Shown: piece by piece, positions 3,066-63,734 of the stretch
Layout: the number at the start of each line of letters is the position of its first letter
Position numbering within the stretch: position 1 is the stretch's first letter
DNA from: Candidatus Methanophagaceae archaeon
GTDB taxonomy: Archaea > Halobacteriota > Syntropharchaeia > Alkanophagales > Methanospirareceae
Assembly: GCA_003194425.1 (NCBI GenBank)
Contig: PQXB01000001.1
Span: 263,522 to 327,521 of the forward strand
Reading direction: 5' to 3'
Length of the DNA stretch: 64,000 nt
Notes under the pieces: generated by a model
The model's database searches: none
Told to the model about the DNA's origin: nothing
Seen by the model: only the letters and a program-made list of their open reading frames with translations
Translations under genes and position numbers: made by a program

Positions 3066-3089
3066 AATTAGGAGGTGAAAACAAAAAAA
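3066..3089 (+). promoter_or_regulatory. Conserved leader / Shine-Dalgarno element ATTAGGAGGTGAAAAC upstream of ATG
   Basis: Near-identical motif also precedes starts at 17473, 19890, 50921(-) and, as GGGGGTGA, 62916(-); complementary to the CCUCC 3' end of 16S rRNA. Confidence 0.5.
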
Positions 3090-3710: not shown

Positions 3711-3799
3711 AGGAGAACAGAAAAAAAAGGACCATAAAAAATTTGGATAGAAGAGGAACAAAAACCTCTTCTATTTTTTTATTTTTTTTGAACGGAAAA

Positions 3800-4912: not shown

Positions 4913-4984
4913 GAGGTGAGTAAGTTATAAGAAACGAAATAAAAAGAATAAGAAGAATAAAGAATAGGAGAAGCACGAGAAAAA

Positions 4985-7870: not shown

Positions 7871-7886
7871 AATAGGAGACAGAGAA

Positions 7887-14986: not shown

Positions 14987-15009
14987 CCTCCTCTTTTTTC
15001 TTTATTTTT

Positions 15010-16401: not shown

Positions 16402-17255
16402 GGAGAACGCAAAAAAAAGGAACGGGGAGACAGGTTTTTTTGTTGGTTTTGTTTCTGTGCTATTTTCTGCTCTTGACTCCTTACATTGTGCACACGAACC
16501 TGAACGAAGTTGGAGGAGGGGTTGTCGAGGACTTGAAGACCGTCCCAGTTCCGTCTCTTCCTGCAGACATTCAGGACCTTGTCTTTGACTTTGGCGGGGA
16601 CGAAAGCGACTGCACGGTTCTTTTGCTGGAAAACAGCGTCTCGGGCGAGAGAACAGCCGTTGTAACCGTCCAAGACTGCGAAATCCAAAAGGGCGCGGTG
16701 GTGAAGGTTACAGACAAAATAATCGAGTGGTTCGTGGACTGGCACGCCTACCAGTCCTGCAGCGGCTTTGACTTTGGCGAGAAGTTTGGAGTCCTTGTTG
16801 TCGGCGAGGTCGCAGAGGTTAGTGCAGCAGAGTCGGGCGTTGAAAAGGTTCTTTCCTCCCGCCCCCTCGGCAGTCCCCTCTTCACGCTTTCAAAGGCGTC
16901 TTTTCTCTTTGCTCCGCTGCTGCTCGTAGTTTGCCTTAGTCTCGGCACCAGAAACCGCTTTTACCTCTGGAACTTCGCTGCGGTCTTGGCTCTCTACTCT
17001 TTTGAAGTCTTTCTGCTCAACACCGCAGGGAGCGTGCTGCACGAGGTTGCGCTAGCGGGAGCAAGAGCTGGGGTAGGGGCAGAGGGAGGAGGAGTGGGTG
17101 CAGCAGAGGGTTGGAAATATTTTGGCTACTTGTTTGTGCTGTTAGTCCCCTTCACCGTTCTTTTCGCACGCTACGAGGAGAGCGAAGAGGGGCAGAGGAG
17201 ACTAAAAAAGTTTTACGCGGGGCTGCTTGAGTTAGTTGATCGTTTGTTTCAGTGA
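16398..17255 (+). CDS. Hypothetical membrane protein
   Basis: ATG overlaps stop of the upstream gene (translational coupling); several hydrophobic segments. Confidence 0.5.
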   Translation: MRRTQKKGTGRQVFLLVLFLCYFLLLTPYIVHTNLNEVGGGVVEDLKTVPVPSLPADIQDLVFDFGGDESDCTVLLLENSVSGERTAVVTVQDCEIQKGAVVKVTDKIIEWFVDWHAYQSCSGFDFGEKFGVLVVGEVAEVSAAESGVEKVLSSRPLGSPLFTLSKASFLFAPLLLVVCLSLGTRNRFYLWNFAAVLALYSFEVFLLNTAGSVLHEVALAGARAGVGAEGGGVGAAEGWKYFGYLFVLLVPFTVLFARYEESEEGQRRLKKFYAGLLELVDRLFQ

Positions 17256-17472
17256 AACTACTTAAAGACGTAAAAGAAACTTTTAATGAAGGAGAAAAAG
17301 CAGAGAAAGAAAAATGTCAGGCTCGTCTGTTTCAAGTTGGATGAGAGCGTCTGGGGGGAACGCCGTGGGAAAAATAGAAATAAGAGAGGAAAACCGAAGC
17401 GGAGAGGAAAGACGCTTTACAAGTAAAAACCCTCTAAAGTCAAAAAAAAATTAGGAGGTGAAAAAAGAAAAA

Positions 17473-19188
17473 ATGAAAACCAAAAGACTACTAAGCCTTT
17501 TAATAGTTTTTACAGTGGTGCTGAGTGTAAGCGTGAGTGCAGGAACGGTCTCGGCAGCGACGCCGAACGACGGGCCAGGTTCGAGCACGAGCAGCGGTGC
17601 GTTTTCTGGAGCAGAGGTGTTGGGTTTGCCGAGGAGTTTCACGCTCGAGGACAGCTTTGGCTACACTTGGGATTTGGACATCGTTTTTGGATGCGTGCTG
17701 TACGGCACAAAGACCTCGAGCATTGGGACCTACCCAGCGTACGGGTACGTATTCGGGAACGAGATGGTTCTGTGGGCTGACAACCCCGGTTCTCCCTACT
17801 CGGACAGCTTTGCCTACACCGGAATGTGGAACTACAAAACAATGAAATTCGACGGAAAATGGGTCGGCTACCCAAAAGGGTCAGGCAATGTCTCAATGTG
17901 GTTTGCTAAGAGTGCGGTAGGCGAAGGAGAAGAAAAGACCTGGACGAGCGAGAATGTAGAAGAAGGACCTGACGCGGCGGCAAGTGCAGGCACAGAGACA
18001 GCGGTTGCACAACAAGCGGTTGCACAACAAAACCTCGATGCTGCGCCGAGCACTGAAGGTAGCGCTAGTGCTAGTGCGACATTCTTGATTGACGGAGAGA
18101 ACGCGGAAGAAGAGATTAGCGGTCTGTTTAGTCGCGGTGCGATTTGCCTCGAAGACAGCTTTAGCTACACCTGGGATTTGGACATCCTCTACGGCTGCAT
18201 CTTGTACGGCACAAAGACCTCGGGTATTGGAACTCATCCCGCGTACGGCTTCGTATTCGGCGACGAAATGTTCCTCTGGGCTGACAATCCTGGTGGGGAA
18301 TATTCAGACAGCTTCGTCTACACCGGGAAGTGGAACGCCGCGGTAACGCTCTTCAACGGAACCTGGATTAACTATCCGATGGGGTCTTCAGGCACGGTCG
18401 AAGTGTGGCCCTGCGGTGGTGGACCAACTGAGACAGAGTACTACGCCGTAATCGCGGGCGAGGGTTACGGTTGTAGTTACGCCGACAGCGACGCCTACGA
18501 TATGTACGGACTTCTTACGAGCGAGTTCAACAACAACTGGAAGAAGGAGAACGTCAGGCTGTTAGTGAGCACCGCGGACGGGACGAAACACGACTGCACA
18601 CGGACAAAGATTCGGAACGGGATTTCGTGGATGGCGAGCGAAGCGGACGAGGACGATGTTAGCCTCTTCTTCTACGCGGGGCACGGCGGTTACCAGACGG
18701 ATGTGACACCACTCGACGAAAGCGACGGCAACGACGAATACATTTGCCCCGAGGGCGGGAACATTCTTGACGACGAACTCAACAACTGGTTGTCTGCGGT
18801 GCCTGGGTACAAGCTGGTCGCACTCGACTCCTGCTTCAGCGGCGGGTTCATTAAAGCCGACGGAGCAGAGGTTAGGAGCGTGCCGGGACTGCCGAGAATT
18901 GACCGAACCGACGGTTTCAGAGAAGACCTCTGCAAGAAGGGGTTCAACGTGCACACCGCCTGCGACGAGGACGAGAGTGCCTACGGCTACGCAGCACTGA
19001 ACAACGGCGTCTTCACTTACTACCTCGTGCAGGGTCTTTACGGACCCGCAGACTCGGACAGCGACGGAGACATAGACTCGTTTGAAGCACACACCTACAC
19101 AAGACCAAAAGTAATTTCGTACACTGGCGGCGACCAGAACCCCTGGCGCTGCGCTGGCACAACTGACCCGCTGATTTGGGTGCTGTAA
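17473..19188 (+). CDS. Secreted caspase-domain (C14 / metacaspase-like, clan CD) cysteine peptidase with two N-terminal tandem domains
   Basis: ATG 17473 after AGGAGGTGA; signal peptide; His motif FYAGHGG and Cys motif LDSCFSGG; ~100-aa domain repeated twice (FTLEDSFGYTWDLDI... / ICLEDSFSYTWDLDI...). Confidence 0.7.
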   Translation: MKTKRLLSLLIVFTVVLSVSVSAGTVSAATPNDGPGSSTSSGAFSGAEVLGLPRSFTLEDSFGYTWDLDIVFGCVLYGTKTSSIGTYPAYGYVFGNEMVLWADNPGSPYSDSFAYTGMWNYKTMKFDGKWVGYPKGSGNVSMWFAKSAVGEGEEKTWTSENVEEGPDAAASAGTETAVAQQAVAQQNLDAAPSTEGSASASATFLIDGENAEEEISGLFSRGAICLEDSFSYTWDLDILYGCILYGTKTSGIGTHPAYGFVFGDEMFLWADNPGGEYSDSFVYTGKWNAAVTLFNGTWINYPMGSSGTVEVWPCGGGPTETEYYAVIAGEGYGCSYADSDAYDMYGLLTSEFNNNWKKENVRLLVSTADGTKHDCTRTKIRNGISWMASEADEDDVSLFFYAGHGGYQTDVTPLDESDGNDEYICPEGGNILDDELNNWLSAVPGYKLVALDSCFSGGFIKADGAEVRSVPGLPRIDRTDGFREDLCKKGFNVHTACDEDESAYGYAALNNGVFTYYLVQGLYGPADSDSDGDIDSFEAHTYTRPKVISYTGGDQNPWRCAGTTDPLIWVL

Positions 19189-19239
19189 GGCAAGAGAGTA
19201 GAACAGCAGAGAAGAGTAGAAAGGACTGTAAAAAAGAAG

Positions 19240-19290
19240 CCCGGCGTTTTTAGTTTTACTGCGCCGCGCCGGGTGGTTATTTTTTTTTGT
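19240..19290. terminator. Hairpin plus T-tract between convergent genes
   Basis: CCCGGCG...CGCCGGG inverted repeat followed by an oligo-T run. Confidence 0.35.
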
Positions 19291-19783
19291 ATTTTTGGTT
19301 TTTGTATTTTTGGTATTTTTGGATTAGAATTATTGCCGCGGTTAGGGCAGCAACTGACAAAACCGAGATTAAAACGACCTTTTTAAACTTTGTTTTAGAC
19401 TCTTCCGACGGCGGTGAGGGAATTGGGTAGGCTACTTCTACTCCCTCTGCTCCTCCTGCTCCTCTCGGGACGGCGCTGGACAAAATGCGCCCGCTCTCTT
19501 TAGCTACCCAGACTCGCACGTTCGGGTACTGCAGCCCCCGCTCCAACTGCTCGTTCGTCCACCAGTCAACCGCCCAGCAGGGAGTTGAGTTGAAGGACTC
19601 TTCGGAGACGACCGAGAAGGCGTCGGGGTGCTTTGAGAGGAGGGCAGCAGCCTCGGCAGTACTCTTCGAAATCTCCTCTGCTTCGCTCTCGGTTACCGCT
19701 GCAGCCGAGACAACTGCAACAGCGGTCGCCGCTAAGAAAATAAGGGCGAGGCACAAGACTATTTTCTCTCTTCTTTTCGGCAT
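19277..19783 (-). CDS. Hypothetical small membrane-anchored protein
   Basis: N-terminal and C-terminal hydrophobic segments, lysine-rich tail KYQKYKNQKYKKK; sits between two protease genes. Confidence 0.5.
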   Translation of the reverse strand: MPKRREKIVLCLALIFLAATAVAVVSAAAVTESEAEEISKSTAEAAALLSKHPDAFSVVSEESFNSTPCWAVDWWTNEQLERGLQYPNVRVWVAKESGRILSSAVPRGAGGAEGVEVAYPIPSPPSEESKTKFKKVVLISVLSVAALTAAIILIQKYQKYKNQKYKKK

Positions 19784-19889
19784 AATTTTTGTAACCCTTT
19801 TTATAAAGAAGGTTCTTGCTTAAAAATATAGTTAAAGCAAAAGGCAAAACAAAAGGCAAAATAAATGCATTAGGAGGTGAAAACCAAAA

Positions 19890-21893
19890 ATGAAAACAAA
19901 ACAAGATGAGAAAAATAAATCAAAAGCGAAGACAAAGACAAAGGCGATTTACGCGGTGCTACTGCTGGTAGTTTTGGCGCTCGGAGTTTTAGTCGCAGTG
20001 CCAAGCGGTGCGGCAGCAGAAGAGCAGACAGCAGAAGAAAAAACGATTGCGGAGTTGCAGCAAGAGATTTACGAGCAGGGCTACAACTACACGGTCGCCG
20101 AGAACAGGATTACGAGACTTCCGGCAGAAGAGAGAGCGGCAGTCTGCGGCTACAAACCGCTGAAAGCACCCGAAGATCCTGTTCCAGACGAAAATATCAG
20201 GTTCGTTGCTGACGCACCGAGCAGTCAAGGAGCGAAAACAGAAGCAGAGGCAGAAGTCAGGGCGCCAAGTTCTTACGACGCGATGGCACTCGGATTTGTG
20301 ACGCCTGTAAAAGACCAGAGTTATCCTATTCCGTGTGGCAGTTGCTGGATCTTCGGAGCGACCGCGGAATTCGAGTCTGATGTCGCGATCGGCGAAGGAA
20401 CGCTGCTTGACTTCGCGGAGCAGGAGGTCGGGGACTGCAACATTTGGTCAAGCGTCGGCGGCTACGACTTCTGCGACGGCGGGAACGCGTTTATGACCAC
20501 TAACTTCTTTACCAAGCACGGCGCAGCGGACGAAGCCTGCCACCCCTACGCAGCGACACCGCAGACCTGCCAAGACTGCCCTATTCTAAAGAAAGTGGAC
20601 AACTGGCGGATGATTACGGGCAGCAGCGGGGAAAGCCAAATAACGACAATCAAGAACGCGATTCTGAACTACGGACCTGTCTACTCAACAATCTACGCAA
20701 ACGCAGGATTCAAGGCTTACAACAGCGGCGTCTACGAGTACTGGGAAGCAAACGAGACGAACCACGCGATAGAAATTATCGGCTGGGACGACTCGAAAGT
20801 GCACTCGCACGGAACCGGAGCGTGGCTGATAAAGAACAGTTGGGGAACAGATTGGGGAACAGCGGGACCGTACCCGGGCTGCGCCTGGGTAGCGTACGGA
20901 GCAGCAAACCTCGGGGACTACACGAGTGCAGTCACAGGCTACAACGACTTCAACACGGACGACGAGATTTTCTACCACGACGAGTGCGGCTGGATGGGGT
21001 GGTGCACGGGTTACGACACGCCAACAGCCTACGGAGCGGTGCGTTTCACGCCAACGCAGGACACGACACTGACCGCGGTTGACTTCTGGGCTGTTGACCC
21101 AGGAATGCAGTACGAGATAAAAATATTCGACACCCGAAATGCAGTAGGCAGCGGAAAATACACCTTCAGCAGCCAACTCGGCATTACTCAAACAGTAACC
21201 ACAAACGAGCCGGGCTACTACTCCGTGCCACTCACGACAACAGTGCCACTAACAGCAGGCGACGACTTCATCGTGCAGGTGAAAGCAACGACTACGACCG
21301 GCTGGGGCTACCCAGCACCGATCGACTACTGCACTGACTCAGACCTGAACTGGGCGGGAATTGCAACCTCTTCAGGCGAGAGTTACGTGAGCCCTGACGG
21401 GACGGAGTTTGAGAAATACGGCACCGGCGGGAAAGACCTCGGAATAAGAGCCAGAGCAGAGCGAGAAGCCCCGGAAGAACCAGAAATCAGCGTAGAGACA
21501 GACAAGTTCGAGTACTGCCTCGGCGAGACGATGGAAATTAAAATAGCAGTCTCAAACCCGACGAGCAGCCCAGTAACTTTGAAATGGTTCTTTGGGTCGC
21601 CCACGCTGGGAGTTTGGCTGCCGATGTACGTAGGCTCGCTGCCTGCAGGCTACGCGAACACTTTTGTAGTGCCGCTGCCCGTCGAGAAGTGGAGCGAGAC
21701 GCCGTTCAGTGCGGTCTGGTACGTGGACTTGCAGGACCCGGAAACAGGAAAAGAGTTAGCAGCGGACTGTGCGTGCTGGTCGTACGCCTACCCGTACTGC
21801 CCGAAGTGTGAGTCAGAGCCAAAGCTAACGCAGCCTTTAGAAAAAATAGCAGCAGGAAGAGAAATAGGAGAACAAATAAAAGGCTCTGCGTAA
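19890..21893 (+). CDS. Secreted papain-like cysteine protease (C1) with the shared C-terminal domain
   Basis: Cys motif CGSCWIFGA, His motif NHAIEIIGWDD, KNSWGTDWG; signal peptide; C-terminal ETDKFEYCLGETMEI...CWSYAYPY. Confidence 0.85.
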   Translation: MKTKQDEKNKSKAKTKTKAIYAVLLLVVLALGVLVAVPSGAAAEEQTAEEKTIAELQQEIYEQGYNYTVAENRITRLPAEERAAVCGYKPLKAPEDPVPDENIRFVADAPSSQGAKTEAEAEVRAPSSYDAMALGFVTPVKDQSYPIPCGSCWIFGATAEFESDVAIGEGTLLDFAEQEVGDCNIWSSVGGYDFCDGGNAFMTTNFFTKHGAADEACHPYAATPQTCQDCPILKKVDNWRMITGSSGESQITTIKNAILNYGPVYSTIYANAGFKAYNSGVYEYWEANETNHAIEIIGWDDSKVHSHGTGAWLIKNSWGTDWGTAGPYPGCAWVAYGAANLGDYTSAVTGYNDFNTDDEIFYHDECGWMGWCTGYDTPTAYGAVRFTPTQDTTLTAVDFWAVDPGMQYEIKIFDTRNAVGSGKYTFSSQLGITQTVTTNEPGYYSVPLTTTVPLTAGDDFIVQVKATTTTGWGYPAPIDYCTDSDLNWAGIATSSGESYVSPDGTEFEKYGTGGKDLGIRARAEREAPEEPEISVETDKFEYCLGETMEIKIAVSNPTSSPVTLKWFFGSPTLGVWLPMYVGSLPAGYANTFVVPLPVEKWSETPFSAVWYVDLQDPETGKELAADCACWSYAYPYCPKCESEPKLTQPLEKIAAGREIGEQIKGSA

Positions 21894-24753: not shown

Positions 24754-26214
24754 ATGCCGTCTAATTCTAACCAAACGTTTGCGAGAGTGGTTGTAGTTGC
24801 TGCGGTCTGCGTCTTTAGCACGCAATTTGGCGTTACTGTGGTCGCGCCACTGCTCGGCGGGTGGGTGGCGGCGTCAGAAACACCGTTCCTCGTGGCAGCG
24901 TTGATTTTCTCGGCTTTTACACTCGTTAGCGCACCGCTTGGAGTTCCGGGCGGCGTTCTTTCAGACAGGCTCGGGCGGAAACCGCTGGTCGTGGCAGGGC
25001 TGCTGCTTTACGCTGCGGCGTCGGTTCTCTTTCCGTTTTCGGACGACCCTTACGACTGGATTTTTGTGCGGGCGCTGCAGGGAGCGGGTGCGGGCTTGTT
25101 CTTCCCTGCGGTTAGTGCTCTGCTTGCGGAGGTTACGAGCCAGGACCACGAGGAACGAGGAGAGGAACGAGGAGGAGAGCAGGGAGAGGAGCGGGGGCGT
25201 GCGTTCAGCGTGTACAACATCGGGCTGGGCGTTGGTTTAGCAGCGGGACCGATTTCAGGCGGGCTTTTATTTGAGGCGTTCGGGATTTTCGTGCCGTTTC
25301 TGTTCTGCGTTGGGTTTGCGGTTCTGAGTGCGGTCTTGGTGGCGGTCTTGGTGCAGGAGCCGAGAGAGAGGTCAGAGCGGAGGAGGGGCGGCGGGTTGGC
25401 GTTGGGGTTGGCGTTAGGCGAGCGGGAGAGGCGGGCGTTGGGGACTGCTTGCGTGGTGATTTTTTTTGGAATCGGAGTTGCAGCGATTATGGAATCGCTG
25501 TTCTCTCCGTTTGCTACAAACGAACTGAGGCTCTCTACAGGCGTCGTCGGAGCGGTTCTTTCCGCGATGCTCGGTGTGTTTGCAACGCTCCAACTCGGCT
25601 TCAGCCGACTGATGCAGAAGGTTGGGGAGGTGGGGATTTCTGCTTTTGGGCTTTTTCTGTGTGCCGTTGGTCTGCTTATGCTTTACTTCGTAACCAGCGT
25701 TCCCAGCGTTCTGGGGCTGCTCTTGGTGAGTGCTGTTCTTGGTGCGGGTCTGGGTGCGGTCTCGCTCGGAACGCTGACGCTGGCGTCAGACGCGGTGGGA
25801 GCAGGCGGCGGAGTTCGCGGAGTAGGGGAGGAGAGAGGAAAAGGGGAGGAGAGAGGAGTAGGAGAGGAGAAAGGAGAAAGGGAGGAGAGAGGAAAAAGGG
25901 AGGAAAGAGGAGAAAGGGAGGAAAGAGGAGCAGGAGAGGAGAGAGGAGAAAGGGAGGAGAGAGGAGTAGGAGGAGGAAAAGTGATGGGAATTTACTACAC
26001 TGCGTTTTACGCAGGTCTTGGTGGCGTTCCGCTTGTCTGCGGGGTTTTTTCAGATATTTTAGGTGCGAGGCGGCTGTTCTTGGGCTACGCGGTGCTGCTC
26101 TTTGTCTTAGCGTTTGCAGTGTGGCAGGGCAGAGTGTTACGGAGGGGCAAGACACCGGCACCGTTTAACACAGAGGTTGCAAATAAAACACAAGAAGAAA
26201 AATTATGTTTGTAG
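24754..26214 (+). CDS. MFS transporter
   Basis: Multiple TM segments; MFS loop motif LSDRLGRKP; long Gly/Glu/Arg repeat insert. Confidence 0.7.
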   Translation: MPSNSNQTFARVVVVAAVCVFSTQFGVTVVAPLLGGWVAASETPFLVAALIFSAFTLVSAPLGVPGGVLSDRLGRKPLVVAGLLLYAAASVLFPFSDDPYDWIFVRALQGAGAGLFFPAVSALLAEVTSQDHEERGEERGGEQGEERGRAFSVYNIGLGVGLAAGPISGGLLFEAFGIFVPFLFCVGFAVLSAVLVAVLVQEPRERSERRRGGGLALGLALGERERRALGTACVVIFFGIGVAAIMESLFSPFATNELRLSTGVVGAVLSAMLGVFATLQLGFSRLMQKVGEVGISAFGLFLCAVGLLMLYFVTSVPSVLGLLLVSAVLGAGLGAVSLGTLTLASDAVGAGGGVRGVGEERGKGEERGVGEEKGEREERGKREERGEREERGAGEERGEREERGVGGGKVMGIYYTAFYAGLGGVPLVCGVFSDILGARRLFLGYAVLLFVLAFAVWQGRVLRRGKTPAPFNTEVANKTQEEKLCL

Positions 26215-27690: not shown

Positions 27691-27933
27691 ATGGCGTAAT
27701 GATACAAAAATTAGTAAATATTCTTTTATTTAAAAGAAAGGAAATATTAAAAAGGTGGTTGAAAATGAAAGGCGCTAAAAAAGTTCATTTCCCTGTTCTC
27801 GTGGAGAGGGATGAAAATGGTTTTTTGTGGTTGAATGTCCTTTTCTTCAAGGGTGCTACATACAGGGCAAAACGCTGGACCAGGCGTTGAAAAACAGAAC
27901 ATGCATGAAGAGAAGAAAAAGAGCAAAAGAATA

Positions 27934-29370
27934 ATGGAACTAAACCGATTGTACTACGGCGACAACTTAACGATTCTCCGAAGATACTTTCCTGACGAGT
28001 CGGTAGACCTGATTTATTTAGACCCGCCGTTCAACTCCAACGCCTCTTACAACATCCTTTTTAAAGAGCCGGGGACAGGCGGCGAGCAGTCAGCCGCGCA
28101 AATTACCGCCTTCGACGACACTTGGCACTGGACAAGCGAGAGCGAGCAGACGTTCCAAGAGATTGTTAAGACCGCTCCTGCGACGGTTGTTAATTTAATG
28201 ACCGCGTTGAAGGACGCTATTCACAGAAACGACCTGCTGGCTTACCTCACGATGATGTGCATTCGGCTTCTTGAGTTGAAGCGAGTTTTGAAGCAGACTG
28301 GCTCTCTTTATTTGCACTGCGACCCGACCGCGAGTCATTACTTGAAGATCCTTCTAGACGCTATCTTTGGAAAGGAGAATTTCAGGAATGAAATAATTTG
28401 GAGTTATCGAAGATGGCCAGCAAAGCAGGAAAATTTTCAGAGGATGCACGACACGATTTTGCGTTACTCAAAAACAGAGAAAGTCATTTGGAACCAACTT
28501 TTTGAACCACTCGCAAAATCGACTTTAAAAGCGGATGGCGGAAATAAAATTCTTAATGTTTTTGATCCAGATACAGGAAAACGGATTCGTGGTAAAAAAA
28601 CGGGCGAAAAATCTCTGGGCGCACCGTTGCGAGATGTGTGGGAAATTTCAGTAATCGCACCAACTGCCAAAGAGCGTGTTGGCTACCGAACGCAGAAGCC
28701 CGAAGCCCTCCTTGAACGCATCATAAAAGCGTCCTCAAACGAGGGCGACGTGGTCTTAGACCCGTTCTGCGGCTGCGGGACTGCAGTAGCAGTTGCCGAG
28801 AGACTCGGTCGCCGCTGGATTGGAATTGACATCACGCATCTCGCTATCAATTTAATAAAAGGGAGATTAAAAGACAATTTCCCAGAGATTGCGTTTTCGG
28901 TCGTCGGCGAGCCAGTAGATTTAGCAGGTGCCGAAGCGTTAGCAAGACAGAACCGCTACCAATTTCAGTGGTGGGCACTCTCGCTAGTCGACGCCAGACC
29001 GTTCGGCGATAAAAAGAAAGGTGCTGACACTGGAATCGACGGCTTCTACTACTTCAACGACGGCGGGACGACAAAGAAGGCGGTCGTCTCTGTTAAGAGC
29101 GGGAAAGTAGGCGTAAGCCAAATCCGAGAGCTAAACGCGGTCGTAGAACGCGAAAAGGCGGAAATGGGCTTCTTCTTGACTCTAAAAACTCCAACAGCAG
29201 CAATGAAAGAAGCAGCCACTGGTGAAGGCTTTTATTTAGATTCCTTCGGGAATAAATATCCGAAGCTGCAACTCTTTACAATTGAAGAACTTCTTAACAA
29301 TAAAAGTCCAGACACGCCGCAAAAAGTCGGTCTCTTTGAATCTTACCGAGCAAAAAAATCAAAAGGATAA
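27934..29370 (+). CDS. DNA methyltransferase (N4/N6 beta-class) with C-terminal Mrr-like PD-(D/E)xK-fold domain
   Basis: Motif IV DPPFNS, motif I DPFCGCGTAV; C-terminal GADTGIDG...VSVKSGK...LFTIEELL; ORF is open from 27835, ATG 27934 (MELNRLYYGDN) preferred. Confidence 0.75.
   Translation: MELNRLYYGDNLTILRRYFPDESVDLIYLDPPFNSNASYNILFKEPGTGGEQSAAQITAFDDTWHWTSESEQTFQEIVKTAPATVVNLMTALKDAIHRNDLLAYLTMMCIRLLELKRVLKQTGSLYLHCDPTASHYLKILLDAIFGKENFRNEIIWSYRRWPAKQENFQRMHDTILRYSKTEKVIWNQLFEPLAKSTLKADGGNKILNVFDPDTGKRIRGKKTGEKSLGAPLRDVWEISVIAPTAKERVGYRTQKPEALLERIIKASSNEGDVVLDPFCGCGTAVAVAERLGRRWIGIDITHLAINLIKGRLKDNFPEIAFSVVGEPVDLAGAEALARQNRYQFQWWALSLVDARPFGDKKKGADTGIDGFYYFNDGGTTKKAVVSVKSGKVGVSQIRELNAVVEREKAEMGFFLTLKTPTAAMKEAATGEGFYLDSFGNKYPKLQLFTIEELLNNKSPDTPQKVGLFESYRAKKSKG
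28951..29355 (+). repeat. Direct repeat copy A (~0.4 kb) flanking pyrF
   Basis: About 90% identical to 30121..30525 with several perfectly identical blocks of 43-64 nt. Confidence 0.85.
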
Positions 29371-30109: not shown

Positions 30110-30565
30110 ATGGAACTAAACAGACAGAACCGCTACCAATTTCAGTGGTGGGCACTCTCGCTAGTCGACGCACGACCGTTCGGCGATAAAAAGAAAGGTG
30201 CTGACACTGGAATCGACGGCTATTTCTTCTTTAACGACGCTGGCGAGACAAAGAAGGCAGTGGTGCAGGTTAAGAGCGGTAAAGTCGGAGTCAGCCAAAT
30301 CCGCGAACTAATCCAAGTCGTAGCGAGAGAGAAAGCGAAAATGGGCTTCTTCTTGACTCTAAAAACTCCAACAGCAGCAATGACCGAAGCAGCCACAGGC
30401 GAGGGATTTTATTCTGATTCCTTCGGTAATAAATATCCAAAGCTCCAAATCTTTACGATTGAAGAACTTCTTAACAATAAAAGTCCAGACACGCCGCAAA
30501 AAGTCGGTCTCTTTGAATCTTTCCGAAATACCAAAAGGAGAAAGAATAAAAGAAACAAAAAATGA
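30110..30565 (+). CDS. Standalone Mrr-like restriction-endonuclease-domain protein (paralog of the methyltransferase C-terminus)
   Basis: Begins with the same first four codons as the methyltransferase (MELN) then the Mrr-like domain; carries QVK where the fused copy has SVK. Confidence 0.55.
   Translation: MELNRQNRYQFQWWALSLVDARPFGDKKKGADTGIDGYFFFNDAGETKKAVVQVKSGKVGVSQIRELIQVVAREKAKMGFFLTLKTPTAAMTEAATGEGFYSDSFGNKYPKLQIFTIEELLNNKSPDTPQKVGLFESFRNTKRRKNKRNKK
30121..30525 (+). repeat. Direct repeat copy B (~0.4 kb) flanking pyrF
   Basis: See copy A. Confidence 0.85.
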
Positions 30566-31719
30566 AAAAGCCGATATTTGACGATGTTGGGAGTTACCCA
30601 CTGCCCGAGGGAACGACGAAGGAGTGGCTGAAAGAAGCCTTCTCCAGTGCTGCTACCAATTCCCAACTCTACGAAATAATAAGAGAAGCGATGTGGCAGA
30701 AGATAAACGCGGGCGTTGAAGTCCCGAACTACCCGCAGTTTCAAAATATGATTTCGCAGTTCAGCGAGCCGATTTTGGACGACAGCCGCACAGAAGCACC
30801 GCTGCTCGTAAAAGAAGAAGAGGCGAGGCTGGTCGAGCTGGACGCTTTAGAGGGGCTGGCTGCGGAGTACAGGGAAGAGCGAGGGGGAGGAAGAGGAAGC
30901 GGAGAGGGAGGAAGAGGGAGCGGAGAGGGAGGAAGAGGGAGCGGAGAGGGAGGTGGGGAAGGGGAGAAATTGAAAATCAGAATTTGCGTTACCGGCCCTG
31001 TAGAGTTGTACTACAGCCTCTTTCCACCGCCGGTTTACACAGACGTCCTCTCAAACATTGCGAAATCAGTGGGCAGGTTCGTAAAGCACGCGGTGGAAGG
31101 AGCGAGGAAAGGAGCGAAGAAGAGGAATTACGAGGTGAGTTGCGTCTCAATTGACGAGCCGAGCATTGGGTTAGACCCTCGCATTGAGGTAAAGGAAGAC
31201 GAGGAGAGCGTAGTCACCGCACTCGAACTCGCCACCGAGTACGCGTCTCGAACCGCGGGCGTTGACACGCAAATTCACCTGCACTCGCCGATTTTTTACG
31301 AGACCGTTTGTCAGGTGGAGGGGATAAAAGTGATTGGGCTGGAGTCTGCGGCTAACCCGTCCCTCCTTGCTCTAATTGACAAAAAAGAACTCGAGCAGCA
31401 CGACAAGTTCCTCCGCATCGGCGTCGCGAGAACTGACATCTTCAGAATGGCTGCCGAGTACGACGAGAGGCACAACACGAACTCCTTCGGGAAAAGCGGG
31501 AAGGAGAGAAGGATTTTGGAGGCAGTGGTTAACGAGTACAACAGCCCTGCCCTCGTAAAAAAGCGGTTGGAGAAAGCGTCTACGATTTTCGGCGAGCGGG
31601 TGCTGTACGCTGGTCCTGACTGCGGACTTGGGGCGTTTCCCAGTCAGGAGTTGGCGTCTTTGGTCTTGAAGAACACTTCTCTTGGGCTGCGGGGGCTGCG
31701 GGAGCGGGATTTTCGGTGA
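30562..31719 (+). CDS. MetE-like (cobalamin-independent methionine synthase family) protein
   Basis: C-terminal AGPDCGL motif and overall resemblance to the MetE catalytic domain; contains (GGRGSGE)3 insert. Confidence 0.45.
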   Translation: MKKPIFDDVGSYPLPEGTTKEWLKEAFSSAATNSQLYEIIREAMWQKINAGVEVPNYPQFQNMISQFSEPILDDSRTEAPLLVKEEEARLVELDALEGLAAEYREERGGGRGSGEGGRGSGEGGRGSGEGGGEGEKLKIRICVTGPVELYYSLFPPPVYTDVLSNIAKSVGRFVKHAVEGARKGAKKRNYEVSCVSIDEPSIGLDPRIEVKEDEESVVTALELATEYASRTAGVDTQIHLHSPIFYETVCQVEGIKVIGLESAANPSLLALIDKKELEQHDKFLRIGVARTDIFRMAAEYDERHNTNSFGKSGKERRILEAVVNEYNSPALVKKRLEKASTIFGERVLYAGPDCGLGAFPSQELASLVLKNTSLGLRGLRERDFR

Positions 31720-31739: not shown

Positions 31740-32504
31740 CTAAACCCTCCAGAGCAGCGGCATAAGCAAAAAGAGGACGACATTTGTCATGCCGTGTGAA
31801 ATGCTGACGCCGATGATCGAGCCTGTGAACTCCTTTATGTAGGCGTAGAAGCAGCCGATTAGGAAGACGAAGACCACATCGAGTGGCGACAAGTTTCCAA
31901 TGTGCATTACAGCGAAAAGGGTCGTGGTAAAAAGAATTCCTGTGTGCCGAGCGGGACTGAAATATTTAGTGGCGTTGTGTTGAATAATTCCCCTAAAAAG
32001 AAGTTCCTCGATGAACCCGGTGCAGACCATAAAAATCACAACCGGAGCAAAAAGCGACCTGAAGGAGAGCTCCTCTAACAGCGGACCGGGCTCCAAAATT
32101 AAATACTCAACAACTCCAAAAGGAACGCCTGTAAAACTTATTGCAAGTTGCGAGGGGATTTGCCGCAGTTTGAGCACGAGACCAACATCCTTTTCGTTTA
32201 AGTGCTGAGAGAAGATCAAAATTGCAGAAGCGAAAAAAAGCGGGATGCTCAGTAAAAAAAACCACTGCACAAAATGAAAAAGGTAAAGAGGGGCGTAAAG
32301 AGTAAGTATTCTGATTAGGGGAACGAGCGCGAGAGAAGTGAGGAGGTGCGAGCTATTTTTGTCTGTGGGGTACGAAAATGCTGCGTGTCCGAGGAGGGTA
32401 AAGAGAAGGAGACCGTGGCAAAAGAGCCCCCAATCTGATTTGAGTAGAGCTGTAATTCCCTCGGCAGCGGTGATGAGAAAGAGGTAAATAAATTCTTTTT
32501 TCAC
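31740..32504 (-). CDS. CPBP-family (CAAX protease-like) intramembrane metalloprotease
   Basis: Multi-TM protein with EELLFRG and FAVMHIGN motifs; start overlaps stop of the upstream gene. Confidence 0.7.
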   Translation of the reverse strand: MKKEFIYLFLITAAEGITALLKSDWGLFCHGLLLFTLLGHAAFSYPTDKNSSHLLTSLALVPLIRILTLYAPLYLFHFVQWFFLLSIPLFFASAILIFSQHLNEKDVGLVLKLRQIPSQLAISFTGVPFGVVEYLILEPGPLLEELSFRSLFAPVVIFMVCTGFIEELLFRGIIQHNATKYFSPARHTGILFTTTLFAVMHIGNLSPLDVVFVFLIGCFYAYIKEFTGSIIGVSISHGMTNVVLFLLMPLLWRV

Positions 32505-33373
32505 TCAACTTCTCCTTCCTTTCTCCTTCTCCTAACAAACGGAAAAATAATATAGCCAACTGGCGCCAAGACCAGAACCGCAATTACCGCGGAGCCCAGA
32601 ACTCCGTGCTCACTGACCAACATCTCGGCGACCATTTTCTCCTTCGGCTTCACCTCAAACATCTCGGGGAAAGAGTCCGCAGCGAGTTTTTTCACCGGCT
32701 CTAAAACCGCCTGGGGCGACCCGCTTAAACTTAAAGGTGCTAACGCGGAGACCCGAACCATTGTCACCTCCTTTGGCAGCGACATTCGCTCGTCCTTCAC
32801 AAAGTAGTACAACACAACCCTCCTTTCTGTTATTTCGCCGTCCTCGCCGCGTTTTACCACTACCAGCTTCTTTGCACTCAACTCGCCCCGAAACAGAAGC
32901 CCCTCCTTCTCCGACCGCCACGGTCCTTTAGCCCACGAGGCGTTGGCGACCGGAATCTTGACCTTCCCCTCTTCCTCTATTTCGTAGCCCAACGCGGGGT
33001 AGCAGACCACGGGCGGGTGGAACGAGGACAGGTTCGAGCCTTGAACGATGACGAAAAAGACAGGGCTTGAGTAGTTGGGCGACCGGTAAGCACGAGAGAG
33101 GACAAGGTCAGCACCCAGAGTCTGTTTCACTCCTGACCAGTCGTAGCTTGTGCTGTGCCACTCGCCGATTTTCTGCGGGAAATTTTTCATCTGCTCGGGG
33201 TCAGCGAAGTCGAGTTTTGTCTTGACAAAAATCCCCGTGCCCGAAGAGCTTTGAATCTGCGTGTCAATCAGAGAGAGACCGCTGGGCGAAATCATTCCGG
33301 GCGTTGAGAGCAGCGGAGTTAAGACGCAGACCAACGCGATTATTCCGACGGTCGTCCGAAACGTTTGTCTCAT
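32501..33373 (-). CDS. EpsI-like exosortase/archaeosortase-associated protein (tentative)
   Basis: N-terminal TM, central FHPPVVCYPALGYE motif resembling EpsI-family proteins, C-terminal TM with RRRRK. Confidence 0.45.
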   Translation of the reverse strand: MRQTFRTTVGIIALVCVLTPLLSTPGMISPSGLSLIDTQIQSSSGTGIFVKTKLDFADPEQMKNFPQKIGEWHSTSYDWSGVKQTLGADLVLSRAYRSPNYSSPVFFVIVQGSNLSSFHPPVVCYPALGYEIEEEGKVKIPVANASWAKGPWRSEKEGLLFRGELSAKKLVVVKRGEDGEITERRVVLYYFVKDERMSLPKEVTMVRVSALAPLSLSGSPQAVLEPVKKLAADSFPEMFEVKPKEKMVAEMLVSEHGVLGSAVIAVLVLAPVGYIIFPFVRRRRKEGEVE

Positions 33374-33415
33374 TCTCTCATTCTTATCTTTATTATGATA
33401 TTTATTACCTCCTTC

Positions 33416-34252
33416 TTAAAGGGGTCTTAACTTTAACCTTAACTTCAACTTAAAAACCCCCGCAGCCGCGAGAATCAGCACCAACGCGACCAAAAAGAAA
33501 AGGACGCTTGAGCAGTCGTGAGCAAAGCCAACCGCAACCTCCACTCCGAACCAAGTGCCGATGAGGAGTGTTACGAAGAGCCGAAGTATGTTTGACGCCA
33601 GTGCAAACGGAACAACGAGGGCTAACAGCGAAATCCGAGCAAGCAGGCGTCCGCTTCCGAGCAAGTACGCAACGACCGCGGTGAGCGCGAAGAGCGGCAT
33701 AATTCGGTTTAAGCCACTGCACGCCGGTGCGATCCAGTAAGTGTTTCCTGCGAGTGTAACGCAGTTCCCGGAGGTTGAGGTGGGCGTTCCCAAGACCCCA
33801 AAAATCGCAGAGACCGCAGAGGCAGAGAGGTTCTGAAGCGGTACTTCTAAAGCTTCAAAAGCCTGGAACGGAATCGCGGTCGCGAGAAGGAAGACTGGAA
33901 AGAGAAGGGGCTTCGCCCTCTTTCCCAAGAAGACTAACGAAAATCCAGCCAAGACCGGCAAGAGCGAGAAGGCAAGCAGTGTCGGCAAGTGCAGGACAGT
34001 GCCGAGAAGGTAAAGAGAAAACCCGAAGCAGAGCAAGCAGAGCGGCAGGAAAAGCCAGTCTTCCGGCTCGGCACGATAAATTTCCTTCCGCTTGAGCCAA
34101 ACAAGAAACGCTCCCGCGGGCAGCAGCAGAAGACCGTGGCTGTAGTACGGGTCGTCGAGCCAAGCACGGAACAGCCAGCGCACGACTTCGTGGTAAAGAC
34201 CGGCTACGAGCAGTGCTGAGCAGAGCAGAACGAGGGTTTCAGTTCTCTTCAT
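33416..34252 (-). CDS. Archaeosortase/exosortase-family transpeptidase
   Basis: Polytopic membrane protein with conserved IAPACSG (Cys), NILRLF (Arg) and FAHD (His) motifs. Confidence 0.75.
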   Translation of the reverse strand: MKRTETLVLLCSALLVAGLYHEVVRWLFRAWLDDPYYSHGLLLLPAGAFLVWLKRKEIYRAEPEDWLFLPLCLLCFGFSLYLLGTVLHLPTLLAFSLLPVLAGFSLVFLGKRAKPLLFPVFLLATAIPFQAFEALEVPLQNLSASAVSAIFGVLGTPTSTSGNCVTLAGNTYWIAPACSGLNRIMPLFALTAVVAYLLGSGRLLARISLLALVVPFALASNILRLFVTLLIGTWFGVEVAVGFAHDCSSVLFFLVALVLILAAAGVFKLKLRLKLRPL

Positions 34253-34428
34253 TTATCATTTTGCTGCCTCTCTCCTCTGCCTGCTACGGCGTCCTTCAGT
34301 GCCTCCGCCATCTCGCCGTCCTCCACTACAAGCGCCCCTCGGTAACCGCAGTCCCGGCACTCGTAAATCTCGCCAAGCCAAGGCAGGTAGTTCAAGTTAT
34401 TAGAACCGCACTTTGGACAAAATTTCAT
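34249..34428 (-). CDS. Small zinc-ribbon protein
   Basis: MKFCPKCGSN...YECRDCGY; start taken at internal ATG so as not to overlap tpiA; ATGA overlap with archaeosortase start. Confidence 0.5.
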   Translation of the reverse strand: MKFCPKCGSNNLNYLPWLGEIYECRDCGYRGALVVEDGEMAEALKDAVAGRGERQQNDK

Positions 34429-40388: not shown

Positions 40389-40678
40389 GGGGAGAGAGGA
40401 AGGGCAGCTGCCGGCCAACCTTTAAAAAAGCGTTTTTCTTGAAGGGCAGGCTGAGGAAAGTCCCCCCACCGAAAAAGCACGAACGTTGAGAGGGCGTAAG
40501 GCGAGAGTCTTGGCTCTGGGATAGAAACGAACCGTGCCACACAAAAGCGATGATTCCGTGAGGAAGAGGTCGTGTGGTTCTGCGGATGGAACGACCAACC
40601 TCGTGGGTGCAAGCCTCAAGAGAAGGTGCAAAGATGAATGCTGCCGAAACAGAAGGGGGCTTACTCTCCTCACTCCCC
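40389..40678 (+). ncRNA. rnpB: RNase P RNA
   Basis: ORF-free region carrying GAGGAAAGUCC (CR-I), AGAUGAAUG and ACAGAAGGGGGCUUAC (CR-IV/V); 5' GGGGAGAGAGG can pair with 3' CCUCACUCCCC (P1). Confidence 0.8.
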
Positions 40679-47094: not shown

Positions 47095-50000
47095 TCACTC
47101 CCTCTTCCTCATCGCTACTGCAAGCACAGCGCTCAAAACTCCGACCAAATAAAGCAGTCCTACAGCACTGAACTCCGGCACTGGCACTGGTGGCGGCGCT
47201 GCTGGTGGCGCACCCGGACCACCAGGGTCAACGATTTTTCCGTCTCCAACAGTCTTGTCCCCTCTCTTACCTTCAACAACTTTCCGTCGTACATAAATTT
47301 GTACCAGTGGTCCGTTGGGTTGCTTAGTGTGGGTCCGTATTTCCAGTATTCCGAGCCTGCAGGCAGGTCACCAGGCAGTTCGATCGTGACCTTCACTGTT
47401 TCTCCTACTGCAAGCCCGGCTATGTTGAATTTGAAGAACCCGTGCTTGAAGACGAGGTTCGGCTTTCCTGCTTTCTCTGTTGGCTCTGCAACCGCCACAA
47501 GATCCTCAAACCCTCCTGCGCTGGTCTTAAACTTTGCAGTTCCCGTGCCTGTGTTTGTGTCTACCGAAGCCTCTGTTGGTGGTAGTGGTTTTGTTGTTCC
47601 TCCAAAGCCAAGCAGTGTTCCTGTGTACTCGCTCTCTTGCAAATTCGCCCAGACGTAGTTCTCGGCGGTGTTAACGCCAGTGTTGCTGCACCTGTGCCAC
47701 GCTCCGTCTGTGTTGTTGTAGTAGTAAAATCCCATCGTGCTCTCGTCCTTTCCCGCTACCTCTGCGTCCGTGTAGTGCATCTCAACGTAAATCGGCCAGC
47801 TCACGTTCTCTTTGTCGCTGACTGCGACGTCAACGAATTTCTCAAGCATCTCTGCAGGCTTCTCTGCTTCCGGGTGCGGGTTCTCCTCGTAGTACGCCAC
47901 GGTCGCCGTAACTTCTCCTGTTGTCGTAATTTCTACGGTTGTGCCCGATTCTGACGGACCCTCTACTGTCTCGGTCTCTCCTGCTGGAATCGTCTCGTTC
48001 TCGGTTGAGGTCGTTTTTGTGATTGTGAAGACCGCGTCGCTCGTGTCCTCACCCGTGTTTCCTTCAACGTCCCGTGCCTCCACTTTTACGAGACTCTTGT
48101 TTGAGGTTGCAGCAGGGTTCGGCACTGTCCACGAATATTTTCCGTCGTTCGGCTCGTTCGTCGCGATTTCTGTCCAAGTGCCTGGGTTTCCGTTGTTCGT
48201 TGAGTACGAGATGTTTATCGGGTTCGCTGCCAAGTTGTGCGTTCCTTTCGCCACGCTCCATTTTATGTCGTAGACCGAGTCGCCGGGAATCTCCTCGCCT
48301 CCGTCTGGCTGCGTTACTGTCGGTGCTGGCGGCACTTCTGGAACTGTTCCAAGCGGAGCGAAGACGCAGAACTCGGTGATGTTTGCGTAAACGTAGTTTT
48401 CAGCCGTGTTCACGCCGTTTACTCCCGAGCCGTCCGCCAGCTCCCAGTCCGCGGTGGTTTCGTTGTACTTGTAAATTCTGAGTGTCGCTTCGTCAACGCC
48501 GCCCAAGTCGCCCTCCTCGTAACTCACGTTCAAGAAAATCCACGAGTCCCCGGTCACGTTCGTTGCGTTCACGAACTTACTGATGTTTGCCTTTCCTGCA
48601 GGGTCTGGCGGTGCAGTTCCCGTTTCCACGCCTTTCACCCCCACTCCGTTCTCGTAGTTGAACGAGACGGTTGTCGAGTAGCTGCGAAGGGCGAGGTTTT
48701 TTACGGTGTTGTTCTGCGAGCGGTTGCCTGAGTAGAAGCTGTAGTTGGTGTTGTTTGCGGCGGTGTTGTCAGTCAGCGTGTTGTTGGAATTCCCTACCTC
48801 TTCCCAGTCAGGGAACATGCAAATCAGTGCGAATCCTTTGTCGGTGTTGTTGCAGGCTCGGTTCTCCGAGAGCGTGTTGTAGTCGCAGGCGTCGTTGAGC
48901 AGAATTCCGACCTTGTTCGCTTCTGCGGTGTTGTTTGTTACGGCGTTGTGCGAGGCGTTGTGGTCAAGGAAAATCCCGACGCCCTCGCCCGTGTTTTCAC
49001 GCACGCAGTTGTCTTTTATCGTGTTGTGCGTGCAGTTCATTCCCAGGTAAATTCCGTTGTCGGCGTTGGAGCAGACGGTGTTGTTGTTTAGGTCGTTGTA
49101 GTGGCACTCGTCCCAGACTAAAAGTGCTGCCCACAAGCCAGTGTTTTGGCTAATGTTGTTGTAGCTGAGCGTGTTGTTGCTTGAAGAGAAGAGTTCGATT
49201 CCGTGCGCGTTGTTCTTGTTTGCGGTGTTGTTTGTGAGGTTGTTGTCGACCGAAGATTCAAGGTAAATTCCGCAGTTGGTGTTGTTCGAGGCGTTGTTGT
49301 TCGCGACGGTGCAGTTGTCCTCGAAGATTAAAGCGATTCCGTCGCCGAAGTTGTCGGTTGCGGTGTTGTCCGAGATTGTGTTGAAGCTCTCGCCACAACC
49401 CATAACTTGTATTCCTCCGTCCCAATTTTCTGTTGCGGTGTTTTCTGTAATTTTGTTGTTGCTCGAGTCAGACACTTGGACGCCCTGTTCTGAATTACCT
49501 TTTGCCTCGTTCCCGCTTACCTCGTTGTTGTCTGAGCCCAGCAAATTAACGCCAGAAGCCGGCTGCGGCATTATCGCAGACGTAACACCAGCCCAACTAC
49601 CAGCCCAACTACCAGCCCAAAGACCACCAACCCTTTCAACAACATCTCCGTTGTCGTTGCAAATATTGTCGGTGACGCTGTTCTCGAACGAGCCGAACAG
49701 ACTAATGCCAGACCCCCAGTTGCTCGAGGCGTTGTTGTTCGCGACGGTGCAGTTGTCCTCGTTTATCAAAGTTATTCCATCGCCGAAGTTGTTGGTTGCG
49801 TTGTTGTTGGAGATGTTGTTGTGGCTCGAAAGTAGCACCTCTTCAACCTCAACGCAAATTCCTGACCCTCCGCTGCCTGGATACATTCCTGTCTCTGACG
49901 CGGTGTTTTCTACGATCTCGTTGTGGCTCGAGGACTGCACATAAATTCCGTAACCGCACTCTATGGCGTTCCTCAGCACTGTGTTTCCTGTAACTTGGTT

Positions 50001-50921
50001 GTAGTCTGAAGAGTTTTGCAGCCAAATGCCGTGGTAGTAATTTCCAGTTACAATGTTGTCCGCGATTTTGTTGTAGGTTGAGGGGTCGAGGTGAATTCCC
50101 GGTCCGTTGCTCGATGCGTTGTTTCCTGTAATCCTGTTGTTGTGTGAGTCCTCCAGGAAAATGCCTCCAGAGTCCCAGCCCCAGTTCTCAATTGCGTCGT
50201 TGCCCGAGATTTCGTTGTCGTTGGAATTCTGAAGGTGGATTCCGCTCTCGCCGTTGTTGTTCGCGGTGTTGCCTGTGATCGTGTTATTGTTTGAAGACTC
50301 CAGGCAGATGCCGCAGTAGTTTCCGGTCAGGGTGTTGCCGAGAATTGTGTTGTTGTTGGTGTTGGCGAGGAAAATGCCGTCGAAGTTCGTTGAGATGTTG
50401 TTGTAGGAGAAGTTGCAGTGACTACCCGCTCCCTCGTGGGAAATCCCTGCTGCGTCGTCAGTCGCTCCTGTAATTGAGAGTCCCGTGAGGTTCACGAAGT
50501 TTGCGGTTACGTTGAAGACGTGGCTTGTTTCTACCGCTGCGTTAACAATGCAGTTCGCAGTGCCGTTCTCGGACCGAATTGTTAGTCGCTGCTTGTTTAC
50601 GACCACGTTCTCGTTGTAGGAGCCGTCCTTGACGCAGACGGTCTCGCCTTCGGCTGCGTTGTCCTCCGCGGCTTGAATTGGCGTGCCGCTGCCGTTAAAC
50701 ACGCTGCTGTGTCGCCACCAGCCTGTCTCGTTCACGCAAATGTCCCCGCAGGTACAGGGCAATGCACTCGCTACTCCCGCGGTTGCAAAAAGGGCAAGGG
50801 TAAAAAACAAACCCGCCAGCCCCGCCGCGGTTAAAACTCTCGTTCCTGCTCTGTTTTGAGTTGTGCTTTTTGATTTTGTTTTATTTTCGGTTTTTGATTT
50901 TGCTTTCTCTTTTGTGTTCAT
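47095..50921 (-). CDS. Cell-surface protein with parallel beta-helix repeats and C-terminal PEF-CTERM-like sorting signal (reached only through an apparent frameshift)
   Basis: Signal peptide after AGGAGGTGA leader; many NNTITGN-type beta-helix repeats; main ORF stops at 47160 but an adjacent frame encodes ...PVPVPEFSAVGLLYLVGVLSAVLAVAMRKRE ending 47095. Confidence 0.7.
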
Positions 50922-63662: not shown

Positions 63663-63734
63663 AGCCCTGGGCGGGACTCGAACCCGCGCTCTCCACCTTA
63701 CCAAGGTGGCGCATTTCCACTATGCTACCAAGGC
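63663..63734 (-). tRNA. tRNA-Thr (anticodon GGU)
   Basis: Acceptor GCCTTGG/CCAGGGC, D arm GCAT/ATGC, anticodon arm CCACC-UUGGUAA-GGTGG, T arm GCGGG-TTCGAGT-CCCGC. Confidence 0.8.

Follow-up and report, generated by a model that had tools for sequence, protein, structure and literature searches.

A bacterial-type exosortase cassette in ANME-1 archaea and a PVP(D/E)x(S/T) tail as its likely signal

The window analysed here, a stretch of 64,000 nucleotides from contig PQXB01000001.1 of a Candidatus Methanophagaceae archaeon, carries on its minus strand a cassette of three genes, which encode a predicted exosortase (xrt, 33416-34252, 278 residues), an EpsI-like protein (32501-33373, 290 residues) and a protease of the CPBP family (31740-32504, 254 residues, with a GTG start). 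All three open reading frames (ORFs) lie where a first-pass annotation, made from the sequence alone, had placed them. We conclude that Xrt, an EpsI that is anchored at both ends and the CPBP protease probably make up a bacterial-type exosortase sorting system that is stable in ANME-1, with a C-terminal tail of the form PVP(D/E)x(S/T) as its likely target.

Judged by its sequence, Xrt is a bacterial-type exosortase and belongs to none of the archaeosortase subtypes A to G. It scores above the cut-offs of the exosortase model TIGR02602 (142.5 bits, cut-off 105.55), of PF09721 (156.6 bits, cut-off 25.7) and of the TIGR04178 signature (53.8 bits, cut-off 23). Its best subtype is XrtA (TIGR03109), with 140.9 bits under a cut-off of 208, XrtD gives 107.8 bits (cut-off 400) and XrtC 43.9 (cut-off 300), and no cut-off is reached among the named Xrt subtype models. 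The archaeosortase models score far lower, with ArtB at 25 bits (cut-off 150), ArtC at 21.2 (cut-off 100) and ArtE at 17.1 (cut-off 95), and those of ArtA, ArtD, ArtF and ArtG give no match at E<=0.1. The first-pass annotation had called the enzyme an archaeosortase-family protein; with TIGR02602 passed and at best 17-25 bits from the Art models, that name does not hold, and classification against ArtA to ArtG places the enzyme in none of these subtypes. The Cys/Arg/His motifs that the same annotation had pointed out are, on the other hand, well supported: the candidate catalytic residues C178 (33719-33721), R224 (33581-33583) and H245 (33518-33520) do not vary among 25 clade members of about 42-99% identity. 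Hydropathy predicts 8 membrane helices, and the AlphaFold2 model (mean pLDDT 80.6) is all-helical with a three-strand insert. Searches of the PDB by sequence and by fold returned no exosortase or archaeosortase, and no solved structure like Xrt.

The second protein, as read from its sequence profile, is an EpsI homologue with an added C-terminal membrane anchor. It lies above the cut-off of PF11984 (39.6 bits, cut-off 26.1) and below that of TIGR02914 (27.4 bits, cut-off 42.8), and when 12 ANME-1 members are set against two bacterial EpsI proteins by hhalign, the probability is 97.7% (E 1.7e-12, 159 columns), with the homology spanning the entire outer domain. Together with the motif FHPPVVCYP, found at residues 118-126 within the extracytoplasmic EpsI domain, this bears out the EpsI-like call of the first-pass annotation. 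Membrane helices are predicted at the N-terminus (residues 10-28) and, additionally, at the C-terminus (residues 262-280, followed by RRRRK); this second, C-terminal helix is not present in the bacterial EpsI proteins compared.

The third protein is identified by its predicted domain and motifs as a CPBP (Rce1-like) glutamic intramembrane protease with intact catalytic motifs, as had been called before. It scores 64.9 bits against PF02517 (cut-off 22.4), and its motifs EELLFRG (166-172), FAVMH (197-201) and SHGMTN (236-241) are kept in 11 homologues. It reaches the cut-off of no specific NCBIfam model: the PEP-CTERM-associated CAAX protease TIGR03008 gives 17.2 bits (cut-off 81.05), and the best matches, all below their cut-offs, are of the myxosortase type, with MrtS at 33.7 bits (cut-off 130), MrtJ at 33.0 (cut-off 75) and Mrt_core NF040914 at 28.4 (cut-off 100). 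Given these matches, and with bacterial CPBP enzymes established as sorting proteases (PMC11980579; bioRxiv 10.1101/2023.06.07.544157), the CPBP protease could be proposed as a myxosortase-like sorting enzyme in its own right, acting on another class of C-terminal tails and merely neighbouring the exosortase. We consider this quite improbable, as the myxosortase-type scores are far under cut-offs of 75-130 (over all Mrt models, 24-34 bits against 75-180), myxosortase signals carry an invariant Cys in their motif (bioRxiv 10.1101/2023.06.07.544157) that neither tail class described here has, and the CPBP gene is bound to the EpsI gene by a 4-nucleotide overlap and keeps its position after xrt and EpsI clade-wide. 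We thus retain the exosortase as the sorting enzyme and the CPBP protease as a member of its cassette. Such a partnership, which the first-pass annotation had counted among the unusual features, is not without precedent, because the adjacency of EpsH and EpsI and four fusions of EpsH with a CAAX protease were reported in bacteria as early as 2006 (Haft 2006, PMC1569441).

Translational coupling, which had been put forward for the cassette, applies to part of it. The EpsI stop and the CPBP gene start share 4 nucleotides, as do a short zinc-ribbon ORF and the xrt start (ATGA), but xrt and the EpsI gene are separated by a spacer of 42 nucleotides (33374-33415, minus strand), which reads GAAGGAGGT immediately past the xrt stop codon. 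The zinc-ribbon ORF (34249-34428, minus strand, 59 residues, CxxC...CxxC) begins 5 nucleotides past the stop codon of the triosephosphate isomerase (TIM) gene and does precede the cassette as had been noted; it gives only weak matches to zinc-ribbon models. By tblastn, only loci of at least 99% identity to the window have it, that is, the window's own lineage, and it is missing from all diverged loci, so that we rejected it as a component of the system.

The window is part of an ANME-1 (Methanophagales) chromosome. Its three cassette proteins are identical to PXF51124.1, PXF51123.1 and PXF51122.1 (Candidatus Methanophagaceae archaeon, on a contig of 1,187,124 bp), a full-length archaeal RNase P RNA (Rfam RF00373, 189 bits) is encoded 6 kb from the cassette at 40392-40675 on the plus strand, the cassette recurs with the same neighbours in six further assemblies, and its relatives carry the names Methanophagales or ANME-1; for these reasons, contamination is very unlikely as the source of the cassette. 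In an exhaustive phmmer search of 1.84 billion representative sequences, Xrt falls into a small, isolated clade, with representatives at 55% and 40% identity and all others at 39% or less, and the nearest named relatives beyond the clade are from Chloroflexota bacteria (38-39% identity) and a Candidatus Altiarchaeales archaeon. A genome scan with Xrt as the single query yielded 5 loci and a metagenome scan with an alignment as query 12, mostly short. The order Xrt-EpsI-CPBP is kept in 11 of the 13 diverged loci whose contig is long enough (L007, L009, L010, L011, L015, L016, L022, L023, L024, L026 and L028), over Xrt identities to the window from about 71% down to 44%. The nearby TIM-HAD-YjbQ block has the opposite orientation in other lineages to that in the window's.

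That Chloroflexota provide the closest named sequences outside the clade, and that two clade members are labelled as bacterial metagenome-assembled genomes, might be taken to mean that the cassette is bacterial DNA misbinned or misassembled into an archaeal genome, or the decaying relic of a transfer. This deserves hardly any credence: the same contig encodes the archaeal RNase P RNA along with archaeal housekeeping genes, the synteny repeats in independent ENA, JGI, Logan and NCBI assemblies, the catalytic residues have stayed invariant over the whole range of clade identities, and one of the contigs with a bacterial label, L031 (GCA_023270595.1, labelled Dehalococcoidia), carries an archaeal-type gene. 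There, a truncated clade Xrt (205 residues, 56% identical) stands beside an archaeal-type PAC2 proteasome-chaperone gene, and its label is probably a binning error. We conclude that the cassette is probably a stable part of the ANME-1 genome, a PEP-CTERM-type system fixed in an archaeal order.

A candidate signal for this exosortase is encoded next to it. In 10 diverged lineages, a secreted protein is encoded 0.1-2.3 kb upstream of xrt on the same strand. Its tail has three parts, a PVPD(V/A/P/L/T)(S/A) motif, a hydrophobic membrane helix and a basic cluster (e.g., GIVAPVPDVSSLILFASGLVLVSVYFAYGRRQRK), and N-terminal signal peptides can be read on the tailed proteins. Their cargo differs: L008 and L016 have a LamG-type domain, L007, L009, L010 and L015 an unrelated one of 165 residues, and the similarity between these two groups is limited to the tail. 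Because the cargo domains vary while the xrt-adjacent tails stay alike, the PVP(D/E)x(S/T) tail is likely the cognate signal of this Xrt, a relative of PEP-CTERM with Asp or Glu after Pro-Val-Pro. In line with this, 10 of the 12 matches to the tail pattern fall into the 2.5 kb upstream of xrt on the same strand, which make up 7.5% of the 365 kb of strand-sequence searched (binomial 3e-10, a value that overstates independence, as the adjacency is conserved synteny among related lineages). The architecture of PEP-CTERM proteins, which are secreted and have motif, helix and basic cluster at their very C-terminal end, is shared by the 10 xrt-adjacent tails, by a tail in the window and by the homologues of the latter. 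The PVPDPS tail of L016 scores 18.8 bits against PF07589 PEP-CTERM (gathering cut-off 20.7); a true bacterial PEP-CTERM tail, encoded at an outgroup locus and used as control, reaches 21.1 bits. A profile built from five tails, run against 5.8 billion proteins, returned three matches, all of them PVPDPS tails and too few for a census. In L007, a gene for a 377-residue ATPase is found between the tailed substrate gene and xrt (7816-9958), and the basic cluster of the substrate gives way to HGGSRHCHA.

The window itself lacks such an upstream gene, and its tail of this kind is the one that the first-pass annotation had listed as a PEF signal. This tail, PVPVPEFSAVGLLYLVGVLSAVLAVAMRKRE, is indeed present at 47095-47178 and contains PVPVPEFS. 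It forms the end of what appears to be a remnant C-terminal sorting signal (...GKIVDPGGPGAPPAAPPPVPVPEFSAVGLLYLVGVLSAVLAVAMRKRE, 47095-47292, minus strand) that is out of frame with its parent gene, which encodes a secreted parallel-beta-helix protein of 1253 residues, a presumed exosortase substrate (47160-50921, minus strand; TIGR03804, 270.7 bits) with a choice-of-anchor U domain at residues 1153-1210 (NF041766, 49.2 bits, cut-off 32). When intact ANME-1 homologues are aligned by tblastn, they follow frame -3 up to 47283 (…FMYDG) and frame -2 from 47316/47292, and the gene as assembled is thus frameshifted near 47283-47292, with roughly 6-13 codons missing. Because the tail is out of frame, the assembled 1253-residue protein is without a sorting signal; the frameshift reflects either a pseudogene or an assembly error. 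The same tail is found in frame in the ANME-1 homologues P0054/P0110 and P0055/P0111, of which P0110, from Candidatus Methanospirareceae, bears the name of a choice-of-anchor U protein and P0111 has 1881 residues. Exact-match look-ups of the 1253-residue ORF and of its 116-residue neighbour found none.

As for the class of this tail, neither it nor P0110 or P0055 matches the PEF-CTERM model (TIGR03024) at E<=10, and the window tail has no match to PEP-CTERM models at the same threshold; so the PEF tail stands as a stretch of sequence but neither as part of its assembled parent nor as a PEF-CTERM signal recognised by the model. It shares PVP(D/E)xS with the xrt-adjacent tails, and by motif we would assign it to the PVP(D/E)x(S/T) class and not to the PEF-CTERM signals of ArtC.

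Several observations weigh against a PVP(D/E)x(S/T) sorting system of this make-up, in addition to the synteny among related lineages already mentioned. The co-occurrence of the three genes, sustained by the gene order in 11 loci, breaks down in L008 and L029, where xrt has no EpsI and CPBP genes downstream. No tailed upstream gene is found in five lineages, namely the window's, L017, L023, L031 and L032. Against the curated PEP-CTERM models, all PVP(D/E)x(S/T) tails stay below the cut-off, and TIGR02595 gives no match at E<=10. The link between PVPVPEFS and Xrt is one of motif similarity alone, and the membrane helix of the window tail is unlike those of the xrt-adjacent tails. Finally, we know of no exosortase of this branch for which cleavage, an acceptor or a role of the CPBP protease has been shown. 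L008 and L029 represent one lineage, in which a gene for a 933-residue membrane protein with a cytoplasmic C-terminal domain follows xrt (1893-4694 in L008).

Tails of a second type occur in the same genomes. The PGF signal of the first-pass annotation, TPGFSVSAVVTAVLGLGFVLVGLKRTGQRKKSK (TPGFSVS…KRTGQRKKSK), is real in that it ends an intact, secreted Pro/Thr-rich protein of 145 residues (4985-5422, plus strand), an identical copy of which is found in another assembly. This protein scores 11 bits against the PGF-CTERM model TIGR04126 (cut-off 24.5), and PGF-like tails reach 13.1 bits against PF18204 (cut-off 18.8). In L015, a thioredoxin-like protein with a PGF-like tail (3402-4576; 17.5 bits against PGF-CTERM, again below the cut-off of 24.5) is encoded adjoining a gene for a DsbD/CcdA-type membrane protein, which suggests a surface-anchored disulfide reductase. 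No PGF-like tail stands in a PVP(D/E) context or is encoded beside xrt. These tails make up a separate, second class, which the evidence does not assign to this exosortase.

The first-pass annotation had instead favoured a single enzyme facing two signals, in which Xrt, as the only member of its family in the genome, would process PGF-like and PEF-like tails alike with the CPBP protease as processing partner. The two window tails do resemble each other near the motif (PGFSVS and PEFSAV), the PGF-like tails fall short of the PGF-CTERM cut-offs and hence are not canonical targets of ArtA, and neither the window nor any of the 32 loci retrieved, together a fraction of a genome, encodes a second Xrt or Art paralogue, ArtC included. 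One surveyed ANME-1 metagenome (Meyerdierks) likewise has no ArtA and no ArtC, with two PF09721 proteins and four PGF-CTERM matches (PMC5244752). However, that metagenome is an incomplete fosmid set, and the other one surveyed has two ArtA matches, although it was judged to be contaminated with bacterial genes; both are devoid of ArtC and of PEF-CTERM (PMC5244752). Moreover, many Euryarchaeota have two or three archaeosortase paralogues, according to a review (PMC6098224), the xrt-adjacent tails are all of the PVPDxS type and never PGF, and the PGF tails are not set in a PVP(D/E) context and, in L015, are without the Ser as well. One enzyme for two signals is therefore disfavoured, and we hold it to be unlikely. 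Doubtful, too, is a broader proposal, in which ANME-1 would be without ArtA and the bacterial-derived exosortase, EpsI and CPBP protease would serve as the general surface-protein anchoring machinery, for both PVP(D/E)x(S/T) and PGF-like tails, building the envelope that contacts sulfate-reducing partners. We thus stay with an exosortase whose likely targets are the PVP(D/E)x(S/T) tails.

Among the known systems, the cassette is most readily compared with the bacterial EpsH/XrtA system. Both have an 8-helix Cys/Arg/His enzyme that passes the exosortase model, an EpsI gene directly downstream, a link to a CAAX/CPBP protease and tripartite tails with a Pro-acidic-x motif, and in L012, a bacterial relative, Xrt-EpsI adjoins a PEP-CTERM protein with AIPEPGT.... 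They differ in that the ANME-1 host is an archaeon without an outer membrane, the XrtA cut-off is not reached, EpsI has its extra C-terminal anchor and the PVP(D/E)x(S/T) motif stays under the PEP-CTERM cut-offs. No polysaccharide-synthesis genes adjoin the ANME-1 cassette, unlike the plasmid locus of D. vulgaris, and a plasmid search for ArtA returned bacterial exosortases only. The 2006 survey had recorded no PEP-CTERM in Archaea or Gram-positive bacteria, both of which are without periplasm and outer membrane (PMC1569441).

With ArtA/PGF-CTERM of Haloferax volcanii, the ANME-1 system has in common the superfamily, the catalytic triad, a task in an archaeal membrane and the presence of a PGF-like tail in the window; in contrast, Xrt does not match the ArtA model at E<=0.1, ArtA systems are without an EpsI partner, and the PGF-like tails of the window lie below the PGF-CTERM cut-offs and away from xrt. 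The likeness to ArtC/PEF-CTERM consists of the Pro-Glu-Phe of the window tail, followed by a membrane helix and basic residues, against which stand the 21.2 bits of Xrt for a cut-off of 100 in ArtC and the missing PEF-CTERM match of the tail and its intact homologues. Systems with a variant signal and a dedicated target, VPDSG-CTERM/XrtC, VPLPA-CTERM/XrtD and VPEID-CTERM/XrtE, were reportedly described by Haft in 2012. They resemble the ANME-1 system in combining an exosortase subfamily with a signal flavour of its own and a target gene beside the enzyme, and differ from it in motif and in the domain of life of the host, with the cut-offs of XrtC and XrtD not reached. The TIGR03008 CAAX protease and the myxosortases (MrtX, MrtJ and MrtS), lastly, are also CPBP glutamic intramembrane proteases tied to C-terminal sorting; the ANME-1 CPBP protein is below all their cut-offs, and its system has no Cys-containing signal.

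Elsewhere in the window, a run of genes for secreted surface proteins extends over 3075-21893 on the plus strand and includes an S8 subtilisin-like protease (5423-7870) and a caspase-like protein (17458-19188). The surface protein ending at 16401 has a plain membrane anchor without a Pro motif, and 13433-16401, considered as a second frameshifted surface gene, was rejected, since it comprises two genes, each with its own signal peptide. The translation of a 1849-residue surface protein shows two long, near-identical segments, for which a default self-BLASTP listed the self-match only. Many short tandem repeats that keep the reading frame and encode much Gly, Glu and Arg occur within otherwise ordinary genes (30873-30967, 25819-25977, 53273-53409 and 56715-56797, among others), and the one in a 385-residue gene adjacent to the cassette may account for its length of 378 versus 385 residues between assemblies.

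An ORF of 151 residues (30110-30565, plus strand) shares 87% identity with the last 142 residues of a 511-residue methyltransferase/Mrr-like protein (27835-29370, plus strand); the two flank the gene for OMP decarboxylase, with the 511-residue gene two genes upstream, and related contigs have a full-length gene of 495 residues where the window has the 151-residue ORF. The pair appears to stem from a restriction-modification gene that was partly duplicated or rearranged. A spurious minus-strand ORF of 101 residues overlies the RNase P RNA gene, and one tRNA gene is found at 63663-63734 on the minus strand. A scan for promoters and terminators, which used the sigma-70 consensus and is thus not applicable to archaea, found sites no more common than in shuffled sequence. 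In L015, from another Methanophagales genome, a CRISPR-Cas set (Cas6b, Cas3, Cas5, Cas7 and a Cas8b-like protein; 15363-20816) is located about 3 kb downstream of the cassette.

From what is known of sortases, exosortases and archaeosortases, a sequence of steps can be proposed for the ANME-1 system. Substrates would be exported by Sec and retained by their C-terminal helix; Cys178 of Xrt would then cut at the PVP(D/E)x(S/T) motif via an acyl-enzyme intermediate, and the mature protein would be passed from Xrt to a putative acceptor in the envelope. EpsI may be the outer-face partner of Xrt, as it is in bacteria, in which the two are frequently fused, and the CPBP protease could either clear the cleaved helix with its basic stub or trim the product in a second step. 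The PVPVPEFS tail of the window would be a target of this Xrt and not of ArtC, the dedicated upstream substrate gene may have been lost from the window's lineage upon inversion of the TIM-HAD-YjbQ block, and the PGF-like tails would most likely be served by another enzyme encoded outside the window.

Homologues of the three proteins are labelled in GenBank as "exosortase/archaeosortase family protein", "EpsI family protein" and "CPBP family intramembrane metalloprotease", and the full-text literature on ANME-1 that we searched holds domain counts only, with no description found of the system or its signal. New here are a PEP-CTERM-type system that is fixed in an archaeal order and has its own flavour of signal, missed by the curated models, an EpsI with a membrane anchor at either end, and a CPBP partner that is not the orthologue of the bacterial one. 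The system puts a PEP-CTERM-type exosortase of the bacterial kind, together with EpsI, into a cell without an outer membrane, and its nearest named relatives, in Chloroflexota and Altiarchaeales, hint that one exosortase branch functions in cells with a single membrane. As the cell envelope of ANME-1 is undefined, a conserved sorting system with a recognisable tail offers a direct way of listing the proteins displayed at the surface; these include large beta-helix and LamG-type proteins, which may mediate contact with partner bacteria.

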